DNA of 64,000 bases from a virus (taxonomy: Duplodnaviria > Caudoviricetes), in the IMG/VR virus record IMGVR_UViG_3300037418_002116; one strand, written 5' to 3'. Within the stretch, counting starts at the first letter, position 1; each line of letters opens with the position of its first letter. Under the pieces are notes generated by a model. The model was not told the DNA's origin and ran no database searches. It saw only the letters and a program-made list of their open reading frames with translations. Shown here piece by piece: positions 2,841-61,195 of this stretch. Made by a program: the position numbers and the translations under genes.

Positions 2841-2900
2841 ATAGAAATCCTTCTGATGGTGGCTATCCGATATTTATCATCTAGGATATTTCAGAAGATT
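2841..2900 (-). promoter_or_regulatory. RBS-sequestering leader hairpin with late promoter in its loop
   Basis: AATCTTCTGA (2900-2891) pairs with TCAGAAGGATT, which holds the SD; GATAAATA at 2878-2871 lies between the arms. Confidence 0.55.
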
Positions 2901-17536: not shown

Positions 17537-18937
17537 TTACTTAAAGTTTAGGTTACTGAATTTTTGTAATGTTTGGCCGGGCTTTTGTGGAGCCGCTGTA
17601 TTGGCCACTTTGGAGGTTGGCGGCGATATCGCCTCTTGGATTCCCTGTAGGGGATCATCCAAATCATAATATCGCATCTTTGGAATATCGACGCCAACGA
17701 AGAACATTGGAATATTGTTCTTATGATCATAGCGAGATTTCAATTGCTTGATTAGCAAAAGATTCTGCTTGGCTAAATCTTCTGTCGAGATAAGCGCAGC
17801 CACAAAGTCAGCCGTAAAATTGATGCCAAAAGCTTCGGATGTATCATCGATATCCGGATTCGAATTTGCGTGACCGCCACGGTTAAACTGTGATGCCGAC
17901 ACAATCGGCACGTTCATTTCAACACCAAGGCCCCGCAATTCTTCGGAAATGGCCTTGTAATAGGTGTTGGTGTTCGATATCTGTCCTGCTTTGAAACGAG
18001 TAGATATCAAAATGTTCAGATAGTCAACATAAATTATGTCCGGAACGAAATGTTTTTTCAGGAGAAGTTCATTCAACAAACTTCTAATATGCGTTACGGA
18101 AGCCGACGACGTTGGATATTCCTTGATAACAAGGCGTCCGTGTGTTTTCTTTTTGGCACGGGCGATTCTATCGTCAAAGTAGCTCTTTGAAATCGTTTGA
18201 AGATTCTTGATTTCAATATCGAGGACGTTAGCGTCGATACGCTTGGCGATTTCCTCTTCCTTCATTTCGGCAGTAATATAAAGAACATTCTTGCCGTCTA
18301 TGAGATTGTTCGCAGCCATGTTGCACATGGCCAGCGACTTACCGACGTTCGTTCCCGCCAAAAGCAGATTGAGCGTCTTTTTCGAGAAACCGCCGTTGGT
18401 CACCTTGTCGAGGTAGGCGATGCCGGTAGAGATTTTTTCCTCTTTTCGGTTATAATATTCGTATCGGTCGTCGGCATTCTCGAAATAGTCGTGACCAATG
18501 GTCGTGTCGAAGCCAACCGCCAAGGCTGATGACAGGATATCGGGAATCGCACCCTTGGCCTTATCCTTACTCTTCCCTTCATAGATCGAAATTGCCTCAT
18601 GCAGAGCAATTTCTAGAGCCCGGTCCTTACAAAATTTTTCGGTTGTGGTTAGAAGCCATTCGATTTCCGGAGCCTTGATTTCCTCTTTGACCGTGTTCAT
18701 CACCGTGTCGATATCGGAAAATGTGTCCTCCACAATCGTATTGTCATTCGACATTTCGATCATGAGAGCTTCGACGGTCGGCGGATTGTTGTAATTTTCG
18801 ACGTAGTTTTTGATATGGTGAAAGATCGTTTGTTCACCTTTTGAGACGAAGTATTCCGTTTTCAGGAATGGGGTTACTCGTCTCATGTAATCATCATTAT
18901 CAATCAGACTTTTGATGATGATTTCTGATACTTGCAA
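17537..18937 (-). CDS. 41: Replicative helicase (gp41)
   Basis: AGTNVGKS Walker A; VDYLNI; SASQFNR; SEAFG. Confidence 0.95.
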   Translation of the reverse strand: MQVSEIIIKSLIDNDDYMRRVTPFLKTEYFVSKGEQTIFHHIKNYVENYNNPPTVEALMIEMSNDNTIVEDTFSDIDTVMNTVKEEIKAPEIEWLLTTTEKFCKDRALEIALHEAISIYEGKSKDKAKGAIPDILSSALAVGFDTTIGHDYFENADDRYEYYNRKEEKISTGIAYLDKVTNGGFSKKTLNLLLAGTNVGKSLAMCNMAANNLIDGKNVLYITAEMKEEEIAKRIDANVLDIEIKNLQTISKSYFDDRIARAKKKTHGRLVIKEYPTSSASVTHIRSLLNELLLKKHFVPDIIYVDYLNILISTRFKAGQISNTNTYYKAISEELRGLGVEMNVPIVSASQFNRGGHANSNPDIDDTSEAFGINFTADFVAALISTEDLAKQNLLLIKQLKSRYDHKNNIPMFFVGVDIPKMRYYDLDDPLQGIQEAISPPTSKVANTAAPQKPGQTLQKFSNLNFK

Positions 18938-18976
18938 ATTGTTACCTTCTTTTTATTATTTTTAGACAAATAGAAT

Positions 18977-18998
18977 CCCTACCGGTTGCCCGGTAGGG
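18977..18998 (-). terminator. Stable hairpin between uvsX and 41 (terminator or stabiliser)
   Basis: CCCTACCGG-GCAA-CCGGTAGGG; weak U tract. Confidence 0.5.
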
Positions 18999-19030
18999 TT
19001 AAAACATTTAAATGTTTGGGAAAACGCAGC

Positions 19031-20119
19031 TTATTCGGCTGAATTGTTTTCCAATGTATCATCTTCTTCGGATGCTGTCAAGTCCATTTCTTGTGAAGAT
19101 GAACCAAGACTAAAGTAAGCTTTAGCAGCTACTTCAAGCTTTTCAAGAATATCCTGTGTGAAATACTTAGCAGGGTCTTCATTGATATGCTTTTCAAAAT
19201 GCTTTGAACCATCCGGCATTTGATATTGTGTGGAAACTTTCTTGATAATACCGGAAGATGCCGCCAATGGCAGCAAACCGTAATAGCGATCCACACCCTT
19301 TTGGAAGTGGAGCTTGATTGCGATCTTGCGGCCTTCACGGGAGAATCGGGACTTCTGCACGTTCACATGGATGATATTGCCATCATGAACGGTCACGTCC
19401 TTACCACCGATCTTGACCTTTTCGGTATCCTTTTCCTTGGTCAAACCAAGGATGGTCGATGCAGCGTATTCCAGACCGCCACCACCAGCCATTTTCTGTG
19501 GTGCACCATAGCTCATAATGTCGGTATATGAGTGAGCGCATACGAACATTGGGATGTTCAGCTTACCAAGCTTCTGTGTCGCCGTGCGGAACAGTGAGCG
19601 AACGCCTTGCTGCTTGGTCATGTCACGCACATCTTTGCCGTTCAGGCCATCCGTGTCTTCCTTGATCGATGGCAACATGCCAAGCGAATCGAGAACCATG
19701 ATCACACGCTGGCGTTTGTCTTCCGGCAGAGTGCCATAGGCATCCAAAAATTTGAGCGCCTTGGTCTTGAATTCTTCGATGGTTGCCGGTTGCTGAATGA
19801 ACACACGGTCGGGATCGATATCACGACGGAGCAAGAAATCTTCGTCAATGGCAAATTCGGTATCGAAAAAGAGAGCCTGTGCAATCGGATCACTCTGCAA
19901 AAGAGCTTTGACGGCTGACATGGCCAAGTAGGTCTTGCCTACACCCGCCTTTGAGTGGACGGCGGTAATTCTGTTGTTTGGAATGCCGCCCCATATGGAT
20001 GTTGAAACAGCGGCGTTTAGGATGTATGAACCGGTATCGAGAAATCCGGTAGTGACGACTGGACCAGAATATTCGGGGTCAGCCTCTTGAATAAGCTTAA
20101 GAAAGGACTTGTCCTTCAA
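19031..20119 (-). CDS. uvsX: RecA-like recombinase
   Basis: DTGSYILN; SKAGVGKT; DTEF; LDSLG; GGGGLEYAAS; KSRF. Confidence 0.93.
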   Translation of the reverse strand: MKDKSFLKLIQEADPEYSGPVVTTGFLDTGSYILNAAVSTSIWGGIPNNRITAVHSKAGVGKTYLAMSAVKALLQSDPIAQALFFDTEFAIDEDFLLRRDIDPDRVFIQQPATIEEFKTKALKFLDAYGTLPEDKRQRVIMVLDSLGMLPSIKEDTDGLNGKDVRDMTKQQGVRSLFRTATQKLGKLNIPMFVCAHSYTDIMSYGAPQKMAGGGGLEYAASTILGLTKEKDTEKVKIGGKDVTVHDGNIIHVNVQKSRFSREGRKIAIKLHFQKGVDRYYGLLPLAASSGIIKKVSTQYQMPDGSKHFEKHINEDPAKYFTQDILEKLEVAAKAYFSLGSSSQEMDLTASEEDDTLENNSAE

Positions 20120-20239
20120 ATGTATTACCTCTTAGTTGTATCGTGTGGTGAAATGTCGTTAATTTTACGTCGCCCATTTCTGTGAAGCGACATAAGTATT
20201 TAGACACTACGACCAACTAAGAGGTTTAGTCAGAATCCT

Positions 20240-20662
20240 TTATTTACTTAGTAGTTCTTTCTCTTTCTCTAAGAGTTCTAACCATAGTTCTTTCAGAGCG
20301 AAATAAGCGTTCAACTCACATTCATATCGAACGACGTTATACAGTTCTTCTTCGATAGGAATTCCATACAATTCTTTGATTCGTTCTTCTGGTGGACGCA
20401 GAGACTCTATAGCCATAGAACGTGCCACATAGGCTCTATATCCAGCTTCTAAATCTTTTCTTGGGTTATCCAATTCATTTACGATTCCACCATCATACAT
20501 GTAATTTTCGAGTAGATTCTTATCAGAATTCATCTCTTCTATAGGTCTATCTTTGTATGCGGTAATATCGGCAAAAAGCCTATCGTAATCCCATCTGTTC
20601 ACCTTGTCAGTGCCAGAAATTCCTTGATCTTCTTTTCCAATGTCTCTGTTCTGTTCGGCCAA
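20240..20662 (-). CDS. Hypothetical protein
   Basis: 140 aa ORF; coupled GTG start at 20602 is plausible. Confidence 0.55.
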   Translation of the reverse strand: MAEQNRDIGKEDQGISGTDKVNRWDYDRLFADITAYKDRPIEEMNSDKNLLENYMYDGGIVNELDNPRKDLEAGYRAYVARSMAIESLRPPEERIKELYGIPIEEELYNVVRYECELNAYFALKELWLELLEKEKELLSK

Positions 20663-20862
20663 TAGATATAGTCATCCTTCCCGGTTGAATGAAGATTGGC
20701 GAGCAAAGGCATCACCAATTCTTCAATCTTTTTTAAACGATCTTTGTATTCTTCAATAGTCACTGTTTGTTCCTCCACCACACTCTTTTGCGTGGTGGAG
20801 AAACCGAAATCGTTCTGTGTAGAGTAATCTTTGATTATGGAATTGATATCCGAAACAGCCAT
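20599..20862 (-). CDS. Conserved T4-like hypothetical
   Basis: DFGF..PLLANL..YIYWPNR. Confidence 0.65.
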   Translation of the reverse strand: MAVSDINSIIKDYSTQNDFGFSTTQKSVVEEQTVTIEEYKDRLKKIEELVMPLLANLHSTGKDDYIYWPNRTETLEKKIKEFLALTR

Positions 20863-23393
20863 TAAACCCAGAGTCCTTCCAATGTACTAATCTCTTCCTC
20901 TCGCCAGCCAATGACCTTGTTCATTGTTTGCACCGGACCCAAGAAAGTCTTTTCAAATTGTACGTCATAATCTATATATTCGTCCAAACCCAATTCCGGA
21001 GGAAGAGAGCGTGGCGCACAGATGACGTTTTCACCAATTGGGTTCGGTAGTTTCAAATAGCACTGCTTGATCTTTTCGCCTTCGAAGATAGGTTCGACTT
21101 CCAAAAGACCGTGCTTGGCCACGTAATGATTGTACAGAAGCGCACCACGCACGTGCATGGGCACCGCAACACCCTTTGTTCGGTTGTAAATGAAGGTTCT
21201 ATCACCATACTTATCCAAGCCCTTACAACCCTTGGGAGCCGCAACCTCTTCAAAAGGCAGAGTGTAGAATTCTTCCCTAACTTTTTTGACGAAATCACGC
21301 ATGGTGGCTTCGTCTTTTTTCAGAACAATCTCATAGTATGCTTTGAGCTTGTTTCTACAAAATTCCGGAGTGGTTGTCTTGACGCCTTCCAATCCGGTGA
21401 TTTCAATAGAAGGCTTGTCGTATTTGATCTTTTCGTTAGCCAGAACGTGATAAAGATATCTCTTCTTCGCCTGAATAACCATCGTATCGCAGATTTTCTC
21501 TTGCTTCATGAAGAGCTTATCTTGATACGAATTCATCATTTTGCCGACTTCCTTGAAGGCGACATCCAACGCAATCTTTTGGATTTTTTCTTCTGCAAAT
21601 TTGATAAGGAAATCTACAATTTTATCCTTATCGGTTAAGCCAAGCTTTTGGATGAACGGATCAAAATTCACAATGCAAGAGTCGGTATCGGAAGCGATAA
21701 CCCAATCCAGATCGAAACCCGTGATTTTGTTCATGTAACCATTAATCGCTCTTTCAGCGGCCTTAATGATCATTTGACCAAATTTGGTGATCGACTCCGC
21801 AATGCGAAGGTCATAGAAGCGGAACCCCTTGTTTCCGGACGCTCCATACAAAGCATTGATCGAAATTTTCTTGTTCTGTTGAAACACGTCGTATTTCAGA
21901 ACTTCACTTTCAAGCTTGGCAATCAGCGCCTTGTCTTTTACAGCCTTGGCGTGTTGTAGATCGTCCTTTGCCTTGTTCATGAGCTTCTTATATTTTTGAC
22001 GATCATCAAAGAAGCTTTGGACGATTTCAACCATGAAGGACGTGAAATTTCTGGTGAATGTCACACCAGATGCCGACATGGAGAGATTGTTCTGTTTTAA
22101 ATACTCTTCGTAGCCATGCGATTGTCCTAGAAGCAGAGCGTCGAGCGACACGTCCAGTGTGTCACGGATGGTATCCGGGCCGATGTTCGCTTGTAGGTAG
22201 ATCGATGGATACAGGGACGTGATATCGAAGCCCATGACCCATTTGTGGCGCTTGGGTTCGGGTTCCTTGACCAGAGCGCCCATGAACTGGCCTTCGTCGC
22301 CAGTCTCTTCAATTTTGGTAATCGGAACGATAATGTCACGATCTTTGAGATATCCATAGATGATGGAATCCCAAAGCTTCGTCGGCATGAAACATTCAGA
22401 CATATTGATCTTGGCAGAATATGCCATATTGTAGATCAATCGCAAAATGTTCAACTTACTTTCCATTCGTTGAACAAGATTGGCGTCTTTGATGTTGTAC
22501 TCATAGAAAAGTTGTGGATTCTGTTCATACAGTCCGGCGAGCGAACCATATGCCTTGTAATCCACCTTCTTTTCACCAAGAACGACATGCGCAACGGTAT
22601 CGAGCTTGTTATCGTCTGGATTTAGGTGTGGAGGACGGAACTTTTTGAAGGAAAGCAGATAATCAAGATCGATGATACCATAGATATCAAAAATTTCGAT
22701 TTCCTTGCCACGATAGGATTTGATGTTTCGTGGTTTGATGATTCCCCATGGCGACAAACGCTTCGCCCAACTCCAACCAAGCACCGCTGTTATGCGTCGA
22801 ATCATGTAGGGCAAGTCGAAGGCGGTCGTATTCCAGCCGGACACGGCGTCCAAGGCGAGCTTTTCCCACACCTTGACGAAGTGCCGAAGCATCTCGTATT
22901 CATTCTCAAACCAGAAAAACGTCGTGCCATCCGGAGCCTTGAAATCCTTCATGCCCCAGAGATACGTTTTGTCGCCAACCACCAGACCGATTGCGGTCAC
23001 TTCCTTGGTCGCTTGGCCTTCTTCCGAGTGCCCGCCTCTCGAATCGGTTTCGATATCGATAAAGCCGGTCTTAATCAGACTGTCGTCATAATCGATTTCA
23101 TCGGGAAACTCTTCATGGATGAAGGCATTAACCCAATTCTGTTGTCCATAAACTTGGAAATTTGCAGCGGCTTCGAAATTTTTCAGGAAATCTCGGGCCT
23201 TGCCAATCGATGCAAATTTGATTGGAGCAAGGGATACACCATGGTATGATTTCCGAATGGCGTTTTCTGCTTTGGAAGGCGTATAGAGAGTTGGCTGATA
23301 TTTCAGGCGCTTCTTAAATGGTTTGCCGTCTCTATAGCCACGAACAAGAATGTCATCGAACTGCTGTTCGACTTTCGTATAGAACGTTGAAAT
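20862..23393 (-). CDS. 43: Family B DNA polymerase (gp43), proposed ATT start
   Basis: DITSLYPS, YGASGN, SDTDS, KKRY; frame open 131 codons upstream of the track start and includes exonuclease DIETD; GGAG-N7-ATT at 23393. Confidence 0.93.
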   Translation of the reverse strand: MSTFYTKVEQQFDDILVRGYRDGKPFKKRLKYQPTLYTPSKAENAIRKSYHGVSLAPIKFASIGKARDFLKNFEAAANFQVYGQQNWVNAFIHEEFPDEIDYDDSLIKTGFIDIETDSRGGHSEEGQATKEVTAIGLVVGDKTYLWGMKDFKAPDGTTFFWFENEYEMLRHFVKVWEKLALDAVSGWNTTAFDLPYMIRRITAVLGWSWAKRLSPWGIIKPRNIKSYRGKEIEIFDIYGIIDLDYLLSFKKFRPPHLNPDDNKLDTVAHVVLGEKKVDYKAYGSLAGLYEQNPQLFYEYNIKDANLVQRMESKLNILRLIYNMAYSAKINMSECFMPTKLWDSIIYGYLKDRDIIVPITKIEETGDEGQFMGALVKEPEPKRHKWVMGFDITSLYPSIYLQANIGPDTIRDTLDVSLDALLLGQSHGYEEYLKQNNLSMSASGVTFTRNFTSFMVEIVQSFFDDRQKYKKLMNKAKDDLQHAKAVKDKALIAKLESEVLKYDVFQQNKKISINALYGASGNKGFRFYDLRIAESITKFGQMIIKAAERAINGYMNKITGFDLDWVIASDTDSCIVNFDPFIQKLGLTDKDKIVDFLIKFAEEKIQKIALDVAFKEVGKMMNSYQDKLFMKQEKICDTMVIQAKKRYLYHVLANEKIKYDKPSIEITGLEGVKTTTPEFCRNKLKAYYEIVLKKDEATMRDFVKKVREEFYTLPFEEVAAPKGCKGLDKYGDRTFIYNRTKGVAVPMHVRGALLYNHYVAKHGLLEVEPIFEGEKIKQCYLKLPNPIGENVICAPRSLPPELGLDEYIDYDVQFEKTFLGPVQTMNKVIGWREEEISTLEGLWV

Positions 23394-23417
23394 ATGGGGA
23401 CTCCGAATGAATGGTCT

Positions 23418-23487
23418 ATTATATAGAATCTCGCTCTTCGAGTCAAGCGAAACAATCTATTGACTTCTGTATGATTTTGATTATATT
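23418..23487. promoter_or_regulatory. Divergent sigma70-type promoters
   Basis: Minus: TTGACT(23446)-N17-TATAAT(23423); plus: TTGACT(23460)-N16-TATATT. Confidence 0.75.
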
Positions 23488-23510
23488 AATTATGAATATG
23501 GAGAGAGAAC

Positions 23511-23711
23511 ATGGATGTAATGTTGATGGATGATGCAAGGCGCATAGCTCTTGCTGCCGTGGAAGTGAAGTCGGCCAAAGCCTTTCGACAAGCATTGATC
23601 ATGCTTGGCAAGGAAGGCGGCGAACCGGCCATGGCCCAACTTGCCGCAATCAAACTGGCCTTGAAGGAAAAGGACTATTCCTTGGCCGAATCAATCGGAA
23701 ATCGATCATGA
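23511..23711 (+). CDS. Hypothetical early protein
   Basis: GGAG SD; 66 aa. Confidence 0.6.
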   Translation: MDVMLMDDARRIALAAVEVKSAKAFRQALIMLGKEGGEPAMAQLAAIKLALKEKDYSLAESIGNRS

Positions 23712-24109
23712 AACGCAATGATGTGGTAATGATCGCCAAGCCAGATTTATACCGACTCTATGGGCGCATCGTGCGCATCATTGACGATAAGGCTTTGTGG
23801 ATATGTTGCGGTTTACACATCCATCTCACACCAATTTCAATGCTCGAAAAGGTCGATTATGTCGGCACGTGGGAGTGGTGCCACAGTGATGAAGTGGTCA
23901 ACTATTATCACAAAGATAAGGATGGTTACCCCACGTCATGGGTTCCCCGTTGGTCACGTCCACCGCATTTCCAGTACATGCCTACTTTGCGCAAGCTGAA
24001 ACAGATGGCTTCCCGCTATCACAAACGCAATGTCTGGAAAACACCACTCGATTATGAATTTCTAACGAAAGAGGATCAGGATGAAAACAGTGACGGAGAG
24101 GCAGATTGA
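23708..24109 (+). CDS. Hypothetical protein
   Basis: ATGA overlap; 133 aa. Confidence 0.6.
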   Translation: MKRNDVVMIAKPDLYRLYGRIVRIIDDKALWICCGLHIHLTPISMLEKVDYVGTWEWCHSDEVVNYYHKDKDGYPTSWVPRWSRPPHFQYMPTLRKLKQMASRYHKRNVWKTPLDYEFLTKEDQDENSDGEAD

Positions 24110-24248
24110 AAAGGCACTCGAATGGATGAAGAATCATCCGGAAAAGGGTTCATCCGTCTCTGAACGGGCACAACAAGCCTCTTGGCGCTTTCATGTCGAT
24201 CAAATAGACCTATTGGAAGCATGGAGAATTAAGAACGGGGGCAGTTAG
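24081..24248 (+). CDS. Hypothetical protein (55 aa)
   Basis: GAGG SD; MKTVTERQIEKALEW... Confidence 0.5.
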   Translation: MKTVTERQIEKALEWMKNHPEKGSSVSERAQQASWRFHVDQIDLLEAWRIKNGGS

Positions 24249-24262
24249 CCCCCGTCTTTTTT
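24235..24262. terminator. Intrinsic terminator
   Basis: ACGGGGGC-AGTTA-GCCCCCGT-CTTTTTT between convergent genes. Confidence 0.75.
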
Positions 24263-24264
24263 CG

Positions 24265-24360
24265 TCACTGTGTGTCGGTCGGTGTCGTGTCGACATACTT
24301 TTTGTAGGCCCAATAGCCCACGGCGACAACGGCGACAAGGATTACGATATCCCAAAGCAT
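24265..24360 (-). CDS. Small membrane peptide (31 aa)
   Basis: GAAGGA SD; MLWDIVILVAVVAVGYWAYKKY. Confidence 0.55.
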   Translation of the reverse strand: MLWDIVILVAVVAVGYWAYKKYVDTTPTDTQ

Positions 24361-24377
24361 ATTTGCATTTCCTTCGT

Positions 24378-24791
24378 TTAGAGGTTAAGTACTTTCTTGA
24401 CATCAGCCGGTCGGTATAGGTCCGACTTCATGACTTTGCCAAACTCGTTATAAACGGGCTTGCCATCTTTATCGAGTTTGGACATGTTGGAAGAATGAAC
24501 TTCCTCAAATACCTTGTCGATATCGATTCCAAAATCAACAGCCATTCCATAGCAGACATATAATAGGTCTGCAAGCTCTTTCGCAAGGGCAGAAATGTTA
24601 ATTTCTTCTGCATCTAATGTGTTGAGATATGGGTCGATTTCAGCCATCAATTCTTTGTATTCTTCCGCTATCAGCCTCTTTCGAAGCACTACAGACGAGT
24701 ATGCAGGAATTGTGGGCGTATCATTTTTTAGAAGGTTGAAAACTTCATGGAACTGCCTAACTTGTTCGAAATTGGTCAAGCGGCTTCCCAA
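24378..24791 (-). CDS. MazG/PRA-PH-like nucleotide pyrophosphohydrolase
   Basis: LIAEEYKEL..KELADLLYVCYG..VHSSNMSK..GKVMKS. Confidence 0.85.
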   Translation of the reverse strand: MGSRLTNFEQVRQFHEVFNLLKNDTPTIPAYSSVVLRKRLIAEEYKELMAEIDPYLNTLDAEEINISALAKELADLLYVCYGMAVDFGIDIDKVFEEVHSSNMSKLDKDGKPVYNEFGKVMKSDLYRPADVKKVLNL

Positions 24792-24976
24792 TACAATTCT
24801 TCGTCTTCCTGAATTGCTTCAAGCGGCGAATAATCTTCGTTATAGTAATCATCCCAATGTTCGGGAGCGCCATAACGAGCGATGGTTTCTGCCGAAAGGC
24901 CATAGACAGCTTCCATAATTTCATGGAGTTCAGTCAGCCAATTGGCGAAATCGTTTGTGTGGAGGGTCGTGGTCAT
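24776..24976 (-). CDS. Hypothetical protein
   Basis: 66 aa acidic; coupled ends. Confidence 0.55.
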   Translation of the reverse strand: MTTTLHTNDFANWLTELHEIMEAVYGLSAETIARYGAPEHWDDYYNEDYSPLEAIQEDEELYWEAA

Positions 24977-25425
24977 TGTGTAGTCACCTGTTTTGATTTT
25001 CCGATTGTATATTTTGCCGTCAAGGTCCAGTCCTTCTTTTCTTTGTAGGAAATAACCTTGATCTTCCCAAGCGGGCAGACCGGCTCTTTTGTCTTTTCGG
25101 GCTCAACGATCTTGATCAATCCCCATTGTGCCAAGAGGTTGGCAATCGCATTGCGACGGGCTAGATCGTCTTCCGAGAAATTCGTTGGCTTTCCATCCAA
25201 CAAGAACATTTCCTTGAAATGAACCAAGGCGTATTTTCCCTGCTTATGCAGGATGTGGCAGGATTGAAACAACTCTTTCTTGGTAGAGGAAGCGGAAGCT
25301 ACGCCGATTCTGGTAAGAGTTTCTTTTACTTTCAAAAAGTTATCCGGTTCCGGAAGTTCAATCCACACAAAATTTTCAGTTACATTACTGTAATCTTTTT
25401 GTTCTGGTACATTCTCTGTAGTCAA
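24973..25425 (-). CDS. regA: Translational repressor RegA
   Basis: FLKVKETLTRIGVAS..LFQSCHILHKQGKYALVHFKEMFLLDG. Confidence 0.95.
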   Translation of the reverse strand: MTTENVPEQKDYSNVTENFVWIELPEPDNFLKVKETLTRIGVASASSTKKELFQSCHILHKQGKYALVHFKEMFLLDGKPTNFSEDDLARRNAIANLLAQWGLIKIVEPEKTKEPVCPLGKIKVISYKEKKDWTLTAKYTIGKSKQVTTQ

Positions 25426-25435
25426 TAGTATTTCC

Positions 25436-25810
25436 TTATTTCGCTCCCCCTTGGTCGAGGGAATCCATTAAATTTTTCAATTCAGTTTCAGTCAATATAT
25501 CCATAATTTCCACCGCCCTATCATAGCGAATGCCAAGCTTTTGTGCCAAAAGGACGGTATCAGCGTCTCTTTGCGGCTTGACCCACTTACTAAACCGACG
25601 TTTCTTAGACGTGGCATAATAAAGGAATTCATAATGTTGTTTTGCAGAAATTTCCGGGCACATGTTCAACTCGTTAGCGAGGAATATCGTGTCGGGAAAA
25701 AATGAGAAAGCCTTGTTGATAATGTACTCTGAATAATCCTTTTTGTCAATATCTTCGTTGAAGGAATATTCCTTGTCGTTGATGCTCTTGACGAAATCCC
25801 AAGGGTTCAT
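25436..25810 (-). CDS. 62: Clamp loader small subunit (gp62)
   Basis: MNPWDFVKSIN..YIINKAFS..KRRFSKW; position after gp44. Confidence 0.85.
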   Translation of the reverse strand: MNPWDFVKSINDKEYSFNEDIDKKDYSEYIINKAFSFFPDTIFLANELNMCPEISAKQHYEFLYYATSKKRRFSKWVKPQRDADTVLLAQKLGIRYDRAVEIMDILTETELKNLMDSLDQGGAK

Positions 25811-26742
25811 TATGCGTAGCAATCCGCCATTATTTCTGTCAGCATCGCAGCCGTGTTGATTTCACGGTTCGATACGAACGCATTCTGGTAATCATACTTT
25901 GAAAGAATGAGAATCAGATATGGGATTTTTTCCGGTTGGATGGAAGCTGGAATCTGATTGTACAAGTCTTGGATGAACAATGAGAAATCCAGATCGGCAT
26001 TTTCCGCTACCCATGTGCGCATATCCTGAAACTTCTGTGATTTCAGAATCTTGATCACGTCGGCGGCACTCGACTTTTGCGAGAGGATACCGGCATCAAT
26101 AGGTCCAGTCTTGGCATATTTTTGAAGCTGATTGATCGTCTTGCGAAGATCAGGGAAGTTTTTGTTGACAAGGCCAGCGACCGCCTTGATATCGTGCTGA
26201 ACGTTTTCCGCCACCAGAATGTCACGAATGCGACGAACAGCGCCTTTCAGAAGCTCGGGCTTTTCATCAGCCGGAAAGACGAAATCCACCGTAGCGCAAC
26301 GGCTCTTCAACGGATCGATGATCCGATTTGAAAAGTTGCAAGTCAGAATGAAACCACAATTCACGGAATATTCTTCCATGAAGTTTCGCAGCGCCGGTTG
26401 GAACGAATTCGGGTTCAAATAATCCGCTTCGTCAAGGATCACGACCTTGCGGGAGTCACCGAAAACCGAAATGGTGGAGGCGAACTGCAAAATGTCGTTT
26501 CGCAGTGTGTCGATGCCGTTCGACATAGAGCCGTTGATAACGGTATAGTCGATACCCATTTCTTGGCACATCGCCTTGGCAACCGTCGTCTTGCCTGTAC
26601 CGGATGGGCCGGTAAGCAGCAAATCCAACATTTCTCCCGAGGCAACGATTCCGGCAAATTCTTTTTTGATATGAGTAGGCAACACGCAATCTTCAATGCG
26701 TGTTGGACGGTACTTTTCCGTCCACTTTACTTGATTAAGCAA
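25810..26742 (-). CDS. 44: Clamp loader large subunit (gp44)
   Basis: WTEKYRP; GPSGTGKTT; ILDEAD; SRC. Confidence 0.95.
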   Translation of the reverse strand: MLNQVKWTEKYRPTRIEDCVLPTHIKKEFAGIVASGEMLDLLLTGPSGTGKTTVAKAMCQEMGIDYTVINGSMSNGIDTLRNDILQFASTISVFGDSRKVVILDEADYLNPNSFQPALRNFMEEYSVNCGFILTCNFSNRIIDPLKSRCATVDFVFPADEKPELLKGAVRRIRDILVAENVQHDIKAVAGLVNKNFPDLRKTINQLQKYAKTGPIDAGILSQKSSAADVIKILKSQKFQDMRTWVAENADLDFSLFIQDLYNQIPASIQPEKIPYLILILSKYDYQNAFVSNREINTAAMLTEIMADCYA

Positions 26743-27429
26743 TTATATTTCTCCGGAATTATTCGCTTCACATGGAATGATGTATGTCAAATCCATATTC
26801 TTGGACTTGAACGTCAATAGTTTGTTTTTGGAGATAGCCACATCGTATGAGTGCATCAAAATTTTTAAATTTTCGACCTTCACCACATACCGAAATTTTT
26901 GATCGGACTCGCCAATCTTATAGCTCATGCCATCCTGTAGCCCGGCCTTTGCCGCCGCACCTTCCTTCATGTTCACGGTCTTGACATAGATTGACTCGCC
27001 ATCAGCTTCGATGGAAAGCTCTTCATGCGAGTAAAGGCTTACCGCCTTCATGATCGTTTTGAGATTTTCAGCCGTGAATTCGAACGAATAGATCGTCTCT
27101 AGGACGTTTAGATTTTTATCCTTTGGTGGCCAGACAAAGAGGGAAGGATTGCAGTAGCGATACGTCGCTTTGTGCGAACCTTCCTCGATTGTCACTTTGG
27201 TATCGTCAAATGATAGATCAGGGTCTTTGAAAAGAGATAGAATGCCAAGGAACATGGGCAAATTATAAACGCCGCAGTCCTTTGGGAATTCCTCTTTCAC
27301 ATTCGCTTCCGCATACACCACGTTCAATGGCGTGATGATGCGTTGGCGATGACCGGCAAGAAACATGATGGATTGGTTGATAGTCGAAAAATTCTGTAGA
27401 ATTTCCACAGTTTCTTTAGATATTTTCAA
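26743..27429 (-). CDS. 45: Sliding clamp (gp45)
   Basis: MKISKETVEILQNFSTINQSI..GVYNLPMFL. Confidence 0.92.
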   Translation of the reverse strand: MKISKETVEILQNFSTINQSIMFLAGHRQRIITPLNVVYAEANVKEEFPKDCGVYNLPMFLGILSLFKDPDLSFDDTKVTIEEGSHKATYRYCNPSLFVWPPKDKNLNVLETIYSFEFTAENLKTIMKAVSLYSHEELSIEADGESIYVKTVNMKEGAAAKAGLQDGMSYKIGESDQKFRYVVKVENLKILMHSYDVAISKNKLLTFKSKNMDLTYIIPCEANNSGEI

Positions 27430-42210: not shown

Positions 42211-42287
42211 CGGCGGTTCGTACAGCGGCCTAGTACCCCCTGCTCATAACAGGTGCAACGCCGGTTCGAATCCGGCACCGCCAACCA
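42211..42287 (+). tRNA. tRNA-Met(CAU) with C1:A72 mismatch
   Basis: CGGCGGT/ACCGCCA; CT-CAT-AA loop; GCCGG-TTCGAAT-CCGGC; CCA. Confidence 0.88.
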
Positions 42288-42288
42288 A

Positions 42289-42385
42289 ATTCCTCCGTTA
42301 CGGGCATGTACCGTCACTTGGAGTCCCCTATATTTCGCCGGTCGGATAGGGCACCGTTCAATTCGGGAAACGGAGGAGTCGACCA
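42289..42385 (+). ncRNA. Structured tRNA-like RNA candidate
   Basis: 11-bp closing stem, internal hairpins, CCG-TTCAATT-CGG T-loop-like arm, ends ACCA. Confidence 0.42.
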
Positions 42386-42400
42386 TTCAACAAGGGAAAT

Positions 42401-60824: not shown

Positions 60825-60833
60825 TTTTTCTGC

Positions 60834-60862
60834 TTGACTCTTAAAAGCGAATAGATTATACA
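60834..60862 (+). promoter_or_regulatory. Promoter for tmRNA
   Basis: CTTGACT-N17-TATACA. Confidence 0.7.
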
Positions 60863-60867
60863 TATAC

Positions 60868-61195
60868 TCGTTGTGATGAAGACGACTGAAAGGTATTCAG
60901 GACTCGGGGGCGGAACCCGACTAGTCCACCACAACCAGATAGAGGGACGAAAGCCCGGCCAATAACACGGCGTCGTATGATGGCTGGCGTTCTATCTGGT
61001 TATGATGGGCTAGAAACAGGATCGACTGGTACGTAATAGGAAGTTGGAGCAACCGGCATTGTACCGCCGTTATCGGGCTAAACACAATAAGAGACAACGA
61101 TAACTTCGTTCCTCTGGCAATCGCTGCCTAATCAGCAGTAGCCAATGAGTTTTGGCGGTTGAACTTGGAAACAGAATCAACCGCCGCTTCTATTT
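60868..61195 (+). ncRNA. ssrA: Circularly permuted two-piece tmRNA
   Basis: Acceptor piece ends TCGGG-GGCGGAA-CCCGA-CTAGTCC-ACCA (60931); coding piece starts GGGCTAG (61007) with G3:U70; tag DNDNFVPLAIAA-stop at 61093-61131. Confidence 0.93.

Follow-up and report, generated by a model that had tools for sequence, protein, structure and literature searches.

Initiation factor 3 (IF3) accepts AUG, GUG, and UUG as start codons and rejects other codons to varying degrees; AUU, AUA, and AUC (collectively AUH) are read by the initiator tRNA with a third-position mismatch. The confirmed AUU genes in Escherichia coli are infC and pcnB only, and in E. coli reporters AUU, AUA, and AUC yield approximately 1 to 2% of the AUG level (bioRxiv 10.1101/063800). 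In both genes, the near-cognate AUU resides behind a normal Shine-Dalgarno sequence, is conserved in relatives, and limits synthesis of a protein that is required at a low or controlled level, with AUC taking its place in some infC genes (bioRxiv 10.1101/063800; PMC5499595). Here we describe gene 43, encoding the DNA polymerase (gp43), on a 64,000-nucleotide stretch of the uncultured tailed phage record IMGVR_UViG_3300037418_002116 (IMG/VR; Duplodnaviria, Caudoviricetes), referred to below as the window. A preliminary description of this DNA had proposed that the polymerase initiates at an AUU codon at position 23393 of the minus strand.

In T4 and RB69, gp43, the product of the same gene, is an autogenous translational repressor. 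There the start codon is AUG, and the operator overlaps the ribosome binding site and includes a hairpin approximately 40 bases upstream; some T4-related gp43 proteins do not autoregulate (PMC3014915). A third described case is the GTC start of Streptomyces sigR, a noncanonical start codon that is repressed by IF3 and serves as a regulatory layer (PMC5472188). Our literature search found no published report of an AUU/ATT or other noncanonical start on a phage DNA polymerase.

The polymerase gene in the window comprises 843 codons plus a stop (23393 to 20862, minus strand), based on frame translation. Its product matches RB69 gp43 (E = 6e-102) and T4 gp43 (E = 1e-100) in three stretches over residues 3 to 840, and the translation holds all of the polymerase motifs: ExoI DIETD (residues 113 to 117; 23057-23043), motif A FDITSLYPS, and motif C SDTDS. 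Based on PHROG matches, genes for a sliding clamp, a clamp loader, and a RegA-like translation repressor precede it on the same strand, and genes for UvsX and a gp41-type helicase follow. Thus, judged by full-length gp43 similarity and a T4-type replication cluster, this is gene 43 of a T4-like phage, encoding a T4/RB69-type family B DNA polymerase. We found no cultured phage with a gp43 above 39% protein identity.

The ATT at 23393 is where homology places the N terminus. In the alignment to the solved RB69 and T4 gp43 structures, residue 3 of the query lies opposite residue 3 in each, and the ATT aligns with Met1. The polymerase frame is open from a TAG at 23459-23457, and the first ATG, GTG, or TTG within it is the GTG at 23000, 131 codons past the ATT and beyond DIETD, as the preliminary description had read it. 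A protein started from this GTG would be without the N-terminal domain and the catalytic exonuclease motif. In a heuristic pass over every open reading frame (ORF) of the window, only the polymerase had its first canonical start more than 63 codons past the upstream stop. Immediately upstream of the ATT are a GGAG followed by a 7-nucleotide (nt) spacer, TCCCCAT, and a TTGACT-N17-TATAAT promoter, which is the best promoter-like site within 20000-26000 (11 of 12 consensus matches). The promoter had been placed about 25 nt upstream; its -10 hexamer ends 24 nt before the ATT, and across these 24 nt ATG, GTG, and TTG are absent in all frames, so the earlier claim of no canonical start between promoter and ATT held, as did the position of the GGAG. 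We consider it strongly supported, on sequence grounds, that AUU 23393 is the translation start, preceded by GGAG and a sigma70-type promoter. The features of this region are collected in Table 1.

Table 1. Features of the gene 43 start region and the tRNA(CAU) gene, in window coordinates
Feature	Position	Strand	Remarks
-35 hexamer TTGACT of the polymerase promoter	23441..23446	-	Read from sequence; kept in L001 (TTGACT) and L163 (TTGACA), spacer varies
-10 hexamer TATAAT, 17-nt spacer	23418..23423	-	TATACT in L001, TATAGT in L163, same spacing
Short 5' leader, about 18 nt long if transcription begins where predicted; holds the GGAG Shine-Dalgarno (23404-23401)	23394..23411	-	
Putative ATT initiation codon of gp43	23391..23393	-	7 nt after GGAG; aligns with Met1 of RB69/T4 gp43
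131 N-terminal codons without in-frame ATG/GTG/TTG	23001..23393	-	N-terminal domain and ExoI
GTG, first canonical in-frame codon (codon 132)	22998..23000	-	Without Shine-Dalgarno; past ExoI
7-bp hairpin GUCGAAC-AGCA-GUUCGAU	23355..23372	-	+22 to +39 of the coding sequence
Divergent promoter TTGACT-16-TATATT	23460..23487	+	For an oppositely oriented 66-aa gene (23511-23711)
tRNA, anticodon CAU, with C1xA72 and C27xU43 mismatches	42211-42287	+	Initiator-type acceptor end

The substitution pattern indicates that the 131 codons ahead of the GTG are coding. Between the window and its closest relative, contig L001, the differences over these codons number 12, 12, and 47 at the first, second, and third codon positions; 38 changes are synonymous and 20 are nonsynonymous. 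This third-position bias shows that the stretch is translated in the polymerase frame and is under purifying selection.

We compared the start region at the DNA level between the window and three IMG/VR contigs from three other samples (L001, L163, and L161). In L001 (93% identity), GGAG and a 7-nt spacer are followed by ATA CCA ACA TTT TAT, and from the -10 hexamer up to the last base ahead of the start region the contig matches the window at all 23 nt. In L163 (66% identity over the whole protein), a TTGACA-17-TATAGT promoter is followed by a leader much like that of the window, with GGAG, 7 nt, and ATA ATT TTC TAT; an in-frame TAG lies 8 codons upstream of the start, with no canonical start in between. 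In L161 (approximately 60% identity), the corresponding sequence is TAA ATC ATT ACA GAA TTT TAT, and because the in-frame TAA directly precedes the two Ile codons, an upstream extension is impossible. All four DNA-level members therefore have an AUH start codon, and none has ATG. The preliminary description had named the start codons of relatives as a check on the ATT, and this check came out in its favor: ATA in L001, ATA or ATT in L163, ATC or ATT in L161, and never ATG.

The spacing within the leader also locates the beginning of the coding sequence. Single-base insertions and deletions set the leaders of the window and L163 apart, and the distance from a conserved CCATT to the Phe-Tyr (FY) codons is 25 nt in one and 21 nt in the other. 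Such non-triplet indels mark the leader as noncoding. From GGAG to FY, by comparison, the distance differs by exactly one codon. A shift of 4 nt measured from CCATT but of one codon measured from GGAG fits a coding sequence that starts just past the spacer.

Together with the window and its three DNA-level relatives, four proteins known only as public calls form one clade of eight members (SH-like approximate likelihood ratio test [SH-aLRT] 98, quick IQ-TREE tree). Three of these four proteins are called 60 to 85 residues short, and the fourth is extended upstream to a distant Met, with Ile at the aligned position. Among database proteins, P0001, P0003, P0005, P0006, and P0008 are called from an internal Met or Val without the 60 to 85 N-terminal residues, and the public call of P0002 carries a 24-residue spurious N-terminal extension. 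In the sister pair of the clade, P0004 begins with an ordinary Met (MSHKLEFYTK). Farther out, all 145 distinct homologues with a readable N terminus among the matches listed (≤41% identity) start with ATG or, in fewer cases, with TTG or GTG; L027, the single homologue that at first seemed to deviate, has a TTG behind AAGGAGG. Their start-to-FY distance is almost always 1 to 3 codons and at most 8. A metagenome scan returned, among the matches listed, only homologues at ≤41% identity. Two scans of genome contigs for further DNA of the clade gave no relevant match (one gave a chance match in a permease gene), and a DNA-pattern scan of viral contigs found no clade contig beyond the three already known.

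By this distribution, the canonical start was probably lost once, at the base of the eight-member clade, and then kept absent to a divergence of approximately 60% identity. In the members read as DNA, the codon drifts among ATT, ATA, and ATC without reaching ATG. A change from ATA to ATG is a single transition, yet it is absent, which argues for selection against a strong start.

We therefore compared the locus with the described systems. The features above would place the gene in the near-cognate AUH start class of infC and pcnB: a homology-defined N terminus without a canonical start, Shine-Dalgarno spacing ahead of the AUH codon, and conservation in relatives. AUU-type near-cognate starts are a known mechanism class, and this is not a new kind of mechanism. 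The gene differs from infC and pcnB in being a phage replicative polymerase and not a host gene, and in that the codon is AUU, AUA, or AUC depending on the clade member. There is also no feedback comparable to that of infC, where IF3 senses its own start codon. With gene 43 of T4 and RB69 the locus shares the gene itself, its neighborhood (45-44-62-regA ... 43 ... uvsX-41), and, apparently, the aim of restraining gp43 synthesis at translation initiation (PMC3014915); autogenous repression by T4 gp43 is thus a precedent for limiting this protein. Unlike in T4 and RB69, the predicted leader is only about 18 nt long and has no upstream hairpin, and the start codon itself is weak. We found no stable structure in this leader, whose extent rests on the predicted transcription start, and a short unstructured leader leaves no room for a gene 43 operator of the T4/RB69 type. 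The likeness to Streptomyces sigR lies in the use of a noncanonical start as a regulatory layer; sigR has a different codon class, encodes a host sigma factor, and has an experimentally shown IF3 dependence (PMC5472188).

Our preferred reading is that gp43 initiates at a near-cognate AUU that is weak and gives a low yield, and that this start is kept by selection in the eight-member subclade; we assign it a probability of roughly 0.8. Gene 43 would be transcribed from its own sigma70-type early promoter into an mRNA with a leader of about 18 nt. The 30S subunit would bind the GGAG, and initiator fMet-tRNA would start at the AUU 7 nt downstream, with a third-position mismatch, producing a full-length polymerase with a normal N-terminal domain. 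An AUH start would be intrinsically weak and rejected by IF3 to a varying degree, so that little gp43 would be made per mRNA. Selection would keep the weak start, the benefit being a limit on the polymerase/exonuclease. We infer the weak translation, the IF3 sensitivity, and the benefit of limiting gp43 from the described cases. By analogy with T4, the weak codon may do constitutively what gp43 autoregulation does there, and by analogy with E. coli infC and pcnB, polymerase dosage may be tied to initiation fidelity through IF3, as the preliminary description had suggested.

The published measurements bear on how strong such control could be. Noncanonical starts are repressed by IF3, and the codons of this clade are not equally sensitive: in optimized in vitro contexts, an AUU mRNA reaches 48 to 74% of AUG and is strongly depressed by extra IF3, and an AUA mRNA reaches 56 to 95% with only a marginal effect of extra IF3 (PMC5499595). 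Given this unequal sensitivity and the turnover among AUU, AUA, and AUC, a generic weak start fits better than an IF3-tuned switch. Several points weigh against a weak, selected AUU start. With AUA and AUU mRNAs at 48 to 95% of AUG in an optimized in vitro context, "weak" may overstate the case (PMC5499595). The phage is uncultured, and the start was placed by sequence analysis. The geometry is not uniform across the clade, as L161 has a weak AGG instead of GGAG, a small upstream ORF overlaps its polymerase start, and a promoter scan found no clear polymerase promoter there. In addition, the start codon was read as DNA in four of the eight clade members, the other four being proteins.

We weighed this reading against other explanations of the same codon. 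ATT and ATG are one base apart and the window is a single assembly, which would allow for a G-to-T sequencing or assembly error or for a decaying pseudogene that has lost its start. Four independent assemblies from different samples, however, carry no ATG and three different AUH codons, the N-terminal region has a strong third-position bias, and the 843-codon frame is intact with all polymerase motifs in place, so we regard error or decay as extremely improbable. Translation might instead start elsewhere and reach the polymerase frame by recoding: ribosomes could shift frame out of a small upstream ORF or re-initiate after an upstream ORF, or transcription could slip. Of the four leaders, only that of L161 makes this conceivable; there, a 16-codon upstream ORF (ATG AAA CAA ..., approximately 2844-2894, plus strand) overlaps the polymerase start; the polymerase frame lies one base downstream of it, and a +1 shift would join both. 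Re-initiating ribosomes are also more permissive. The upstream ORF is not conserved, however, and the window, L001, and L163 are without ATG, GTG, or TTG in any frame from the -10 hexamer to the AUH codon. In the window, moreover, the polymerase heads its own unit opposite a divergent promoter, separated from the upstream operon by the hairpin at 24234-24256, and recoding is very improbable. It is somewhat easier to imagine, though still unlikely, that a neighboring noncanonical codon is the true start and that the codon named here is off by one to five codons. Adjacent Ile codons are present in L163 (ATA ATT) and L161 (ATC ATT), and the window has a further in-frame ATT at 23408. That ATT sits 5' of the GGAG and approximately 3 nt from the predicted 5' end, in a leader whose non-triplet indels between relatives mark it as not coding, and the geometry of GGAG and 7 nt selects 23393 in the window, matching the ATA in L001 and L163.

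A different kind of explanation is that the tRNA(CAU) encoded by the phage acts as a relaxed initiator that aids the AUH start and the many UUG starts. A C1xA72 mismatch is a hallmark of bacterial initiator tRNA, and IF3 inspects three G:C pairs in the anticodon stem. The phage tRNA has the C1xA72 mismatch, which persists in the L001 and L163 contigs alongside compensated changes in the stem, and the replication genes of the phage are rich in TTG starts. Its anticodon stem (CCCUG/CAGGU), on the other hand, is without GGG:CCC, the three consecutive G:C pairs at 29-31:39-41, and its 11:24 pair is U:A and not the initiator A11:U24. The homologue on the L161 contig has a normal G1:C72 even though the L161 polymerase start is AUH. 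The gene sits with tRNA-Leu(UAA) and tRNA-Ile(GAU), and is consistent with an ordinary tRNA-Ile2 that reads AUA and serves codons ending in A or U. We consider a helper role for this tRNA quite unlikely. We are just as doubtful of the broader idea that AUH on gp43 and UUG on 45, 44, regA, uvsX, and 41 might form a phage-controlled translational program that tRNA(CAU) switches on during infection. The tRNA-Ile(GAU) of the window was likewise considered as an initiator-like tRNA and rejected, as it is an ordinary elongator with U1:A72.

A weak AUU start on gene 43 would have consequences for both annotation and regulation. Public calls for the clade cut approximately 60 to 85 polymerase residues, and one adds a spurious extension; an ORF finder run on the window would cut 131 residues, including the catalytic exonuclease motif. 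A near-cognate start that is kept on an essential, conserved polymerase down to approximately 60% identity is clean comparative evidence that the phage pays a cost for excess polymerase, and suggests as well that protein-RNA autoregulation of the T4 type can give way to a weak start codon.

The transcriptional setting of the gene is compact. The minus-strand operon upstream is closed by a bidirectional terminator-like hairpin (24234-24256), which separates it from the polymerase gene. This hairpin and the divergent promoter indicate that the polymerase gene stands first in a transcription unit of its own. In the window (23441-23487), and likewise in the two nearer relatives L001 (2907-2976) and L163 (2911-2971), two divergent sigma70-like promoters lie back to back, their -35 boxes 3 to 13 bp apart, one driving the polymerase and the other a small gene of opposite orientation.

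Two further features of the N-terminal coding region were considered and set aside. A purge of in-frame ATG, GTG, and TTG from the first 131 codons is not a feature of the clade, with 0 such codons in the window, 1 in L001, 5 in L163, and 5 in L161, where the controls averaged 3.6. All four relatives retain the hairpin at +22 to +39, and one of its pairs shows a compensatory change; we rejected a tie to the unusual start because hairpins of equal or greater strength often occur at this position in homologues that start with ATG (rank 20 to 84 of 143). Many ATG-start gp43 genes of distant T4-like phages (L002-L180) have hairpins of up to 12 bp and -19 kcal/mol within 45 nt after FY. Near the start of the distant genes, these hairpins may represent an operator-like element that lies within coding sequence.

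Starts other than ATG extend to the surrounding replication genes. Genes 45, 44, regA-like, uvsX, and 41 open with TTG (window 17537-27429, minus strand). The TTG starts of the clamp and clamp loader were confirmed by PHROG profile alignments that begin at residues 1 and 3, and those of RegA, UvsX, and the helicase are backed by Shine-Dalgarno position. A heuristic tally of start codons across the window gave 69 ATG, 17 TTG, and 4 GTG. The polymerase is the extreme case in a replication module that largely avoids ATG. At the other end of the gene, the polymerase stop overlaps the ATG of an 87-codon ORF (TAATG, 20860-20864, minus strand), with a GGAAGGA inside the C-terminal polymerase codons. 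Translational coupling may link this downstream gene to the weakly initiated polymerase.

A search with the leader motif GGAGTCCCC, considered as a candidate shared regulatory element, returned one similar site, at 42320; the remaining matches were unrelated. This site, GGAGTCCCCTATATTTC (42320-42336, plus strand), lies just past the tRNA(CAU) gene and is a near-repeat of the polymerase leader and start, GGAGTCCCCATATTTC. It would open a frame of 5 codons only (ATT TCG CCG GTC GGA TAG). A second element, GACCATTCA (42381-42389, plus strand), is likewise shared with the polymerase leader and lies 45 nt after GGAGTCCCCTATATTTC.

The tRNA(CAU) and a tmRNA gene give hints about the host. The sole database match to tRNA(CAU) was in Agrobacterium phage Atu_ph07. 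The window also holds a two-piece (permuted) tmRNA gene of the alphaproteobacterial type (60830-61185, plus strand; Rfam RF01849, 126 bits). The tmRNA type and the Atu_ph07 tRNA match suggest an alphaproteobacterial host.

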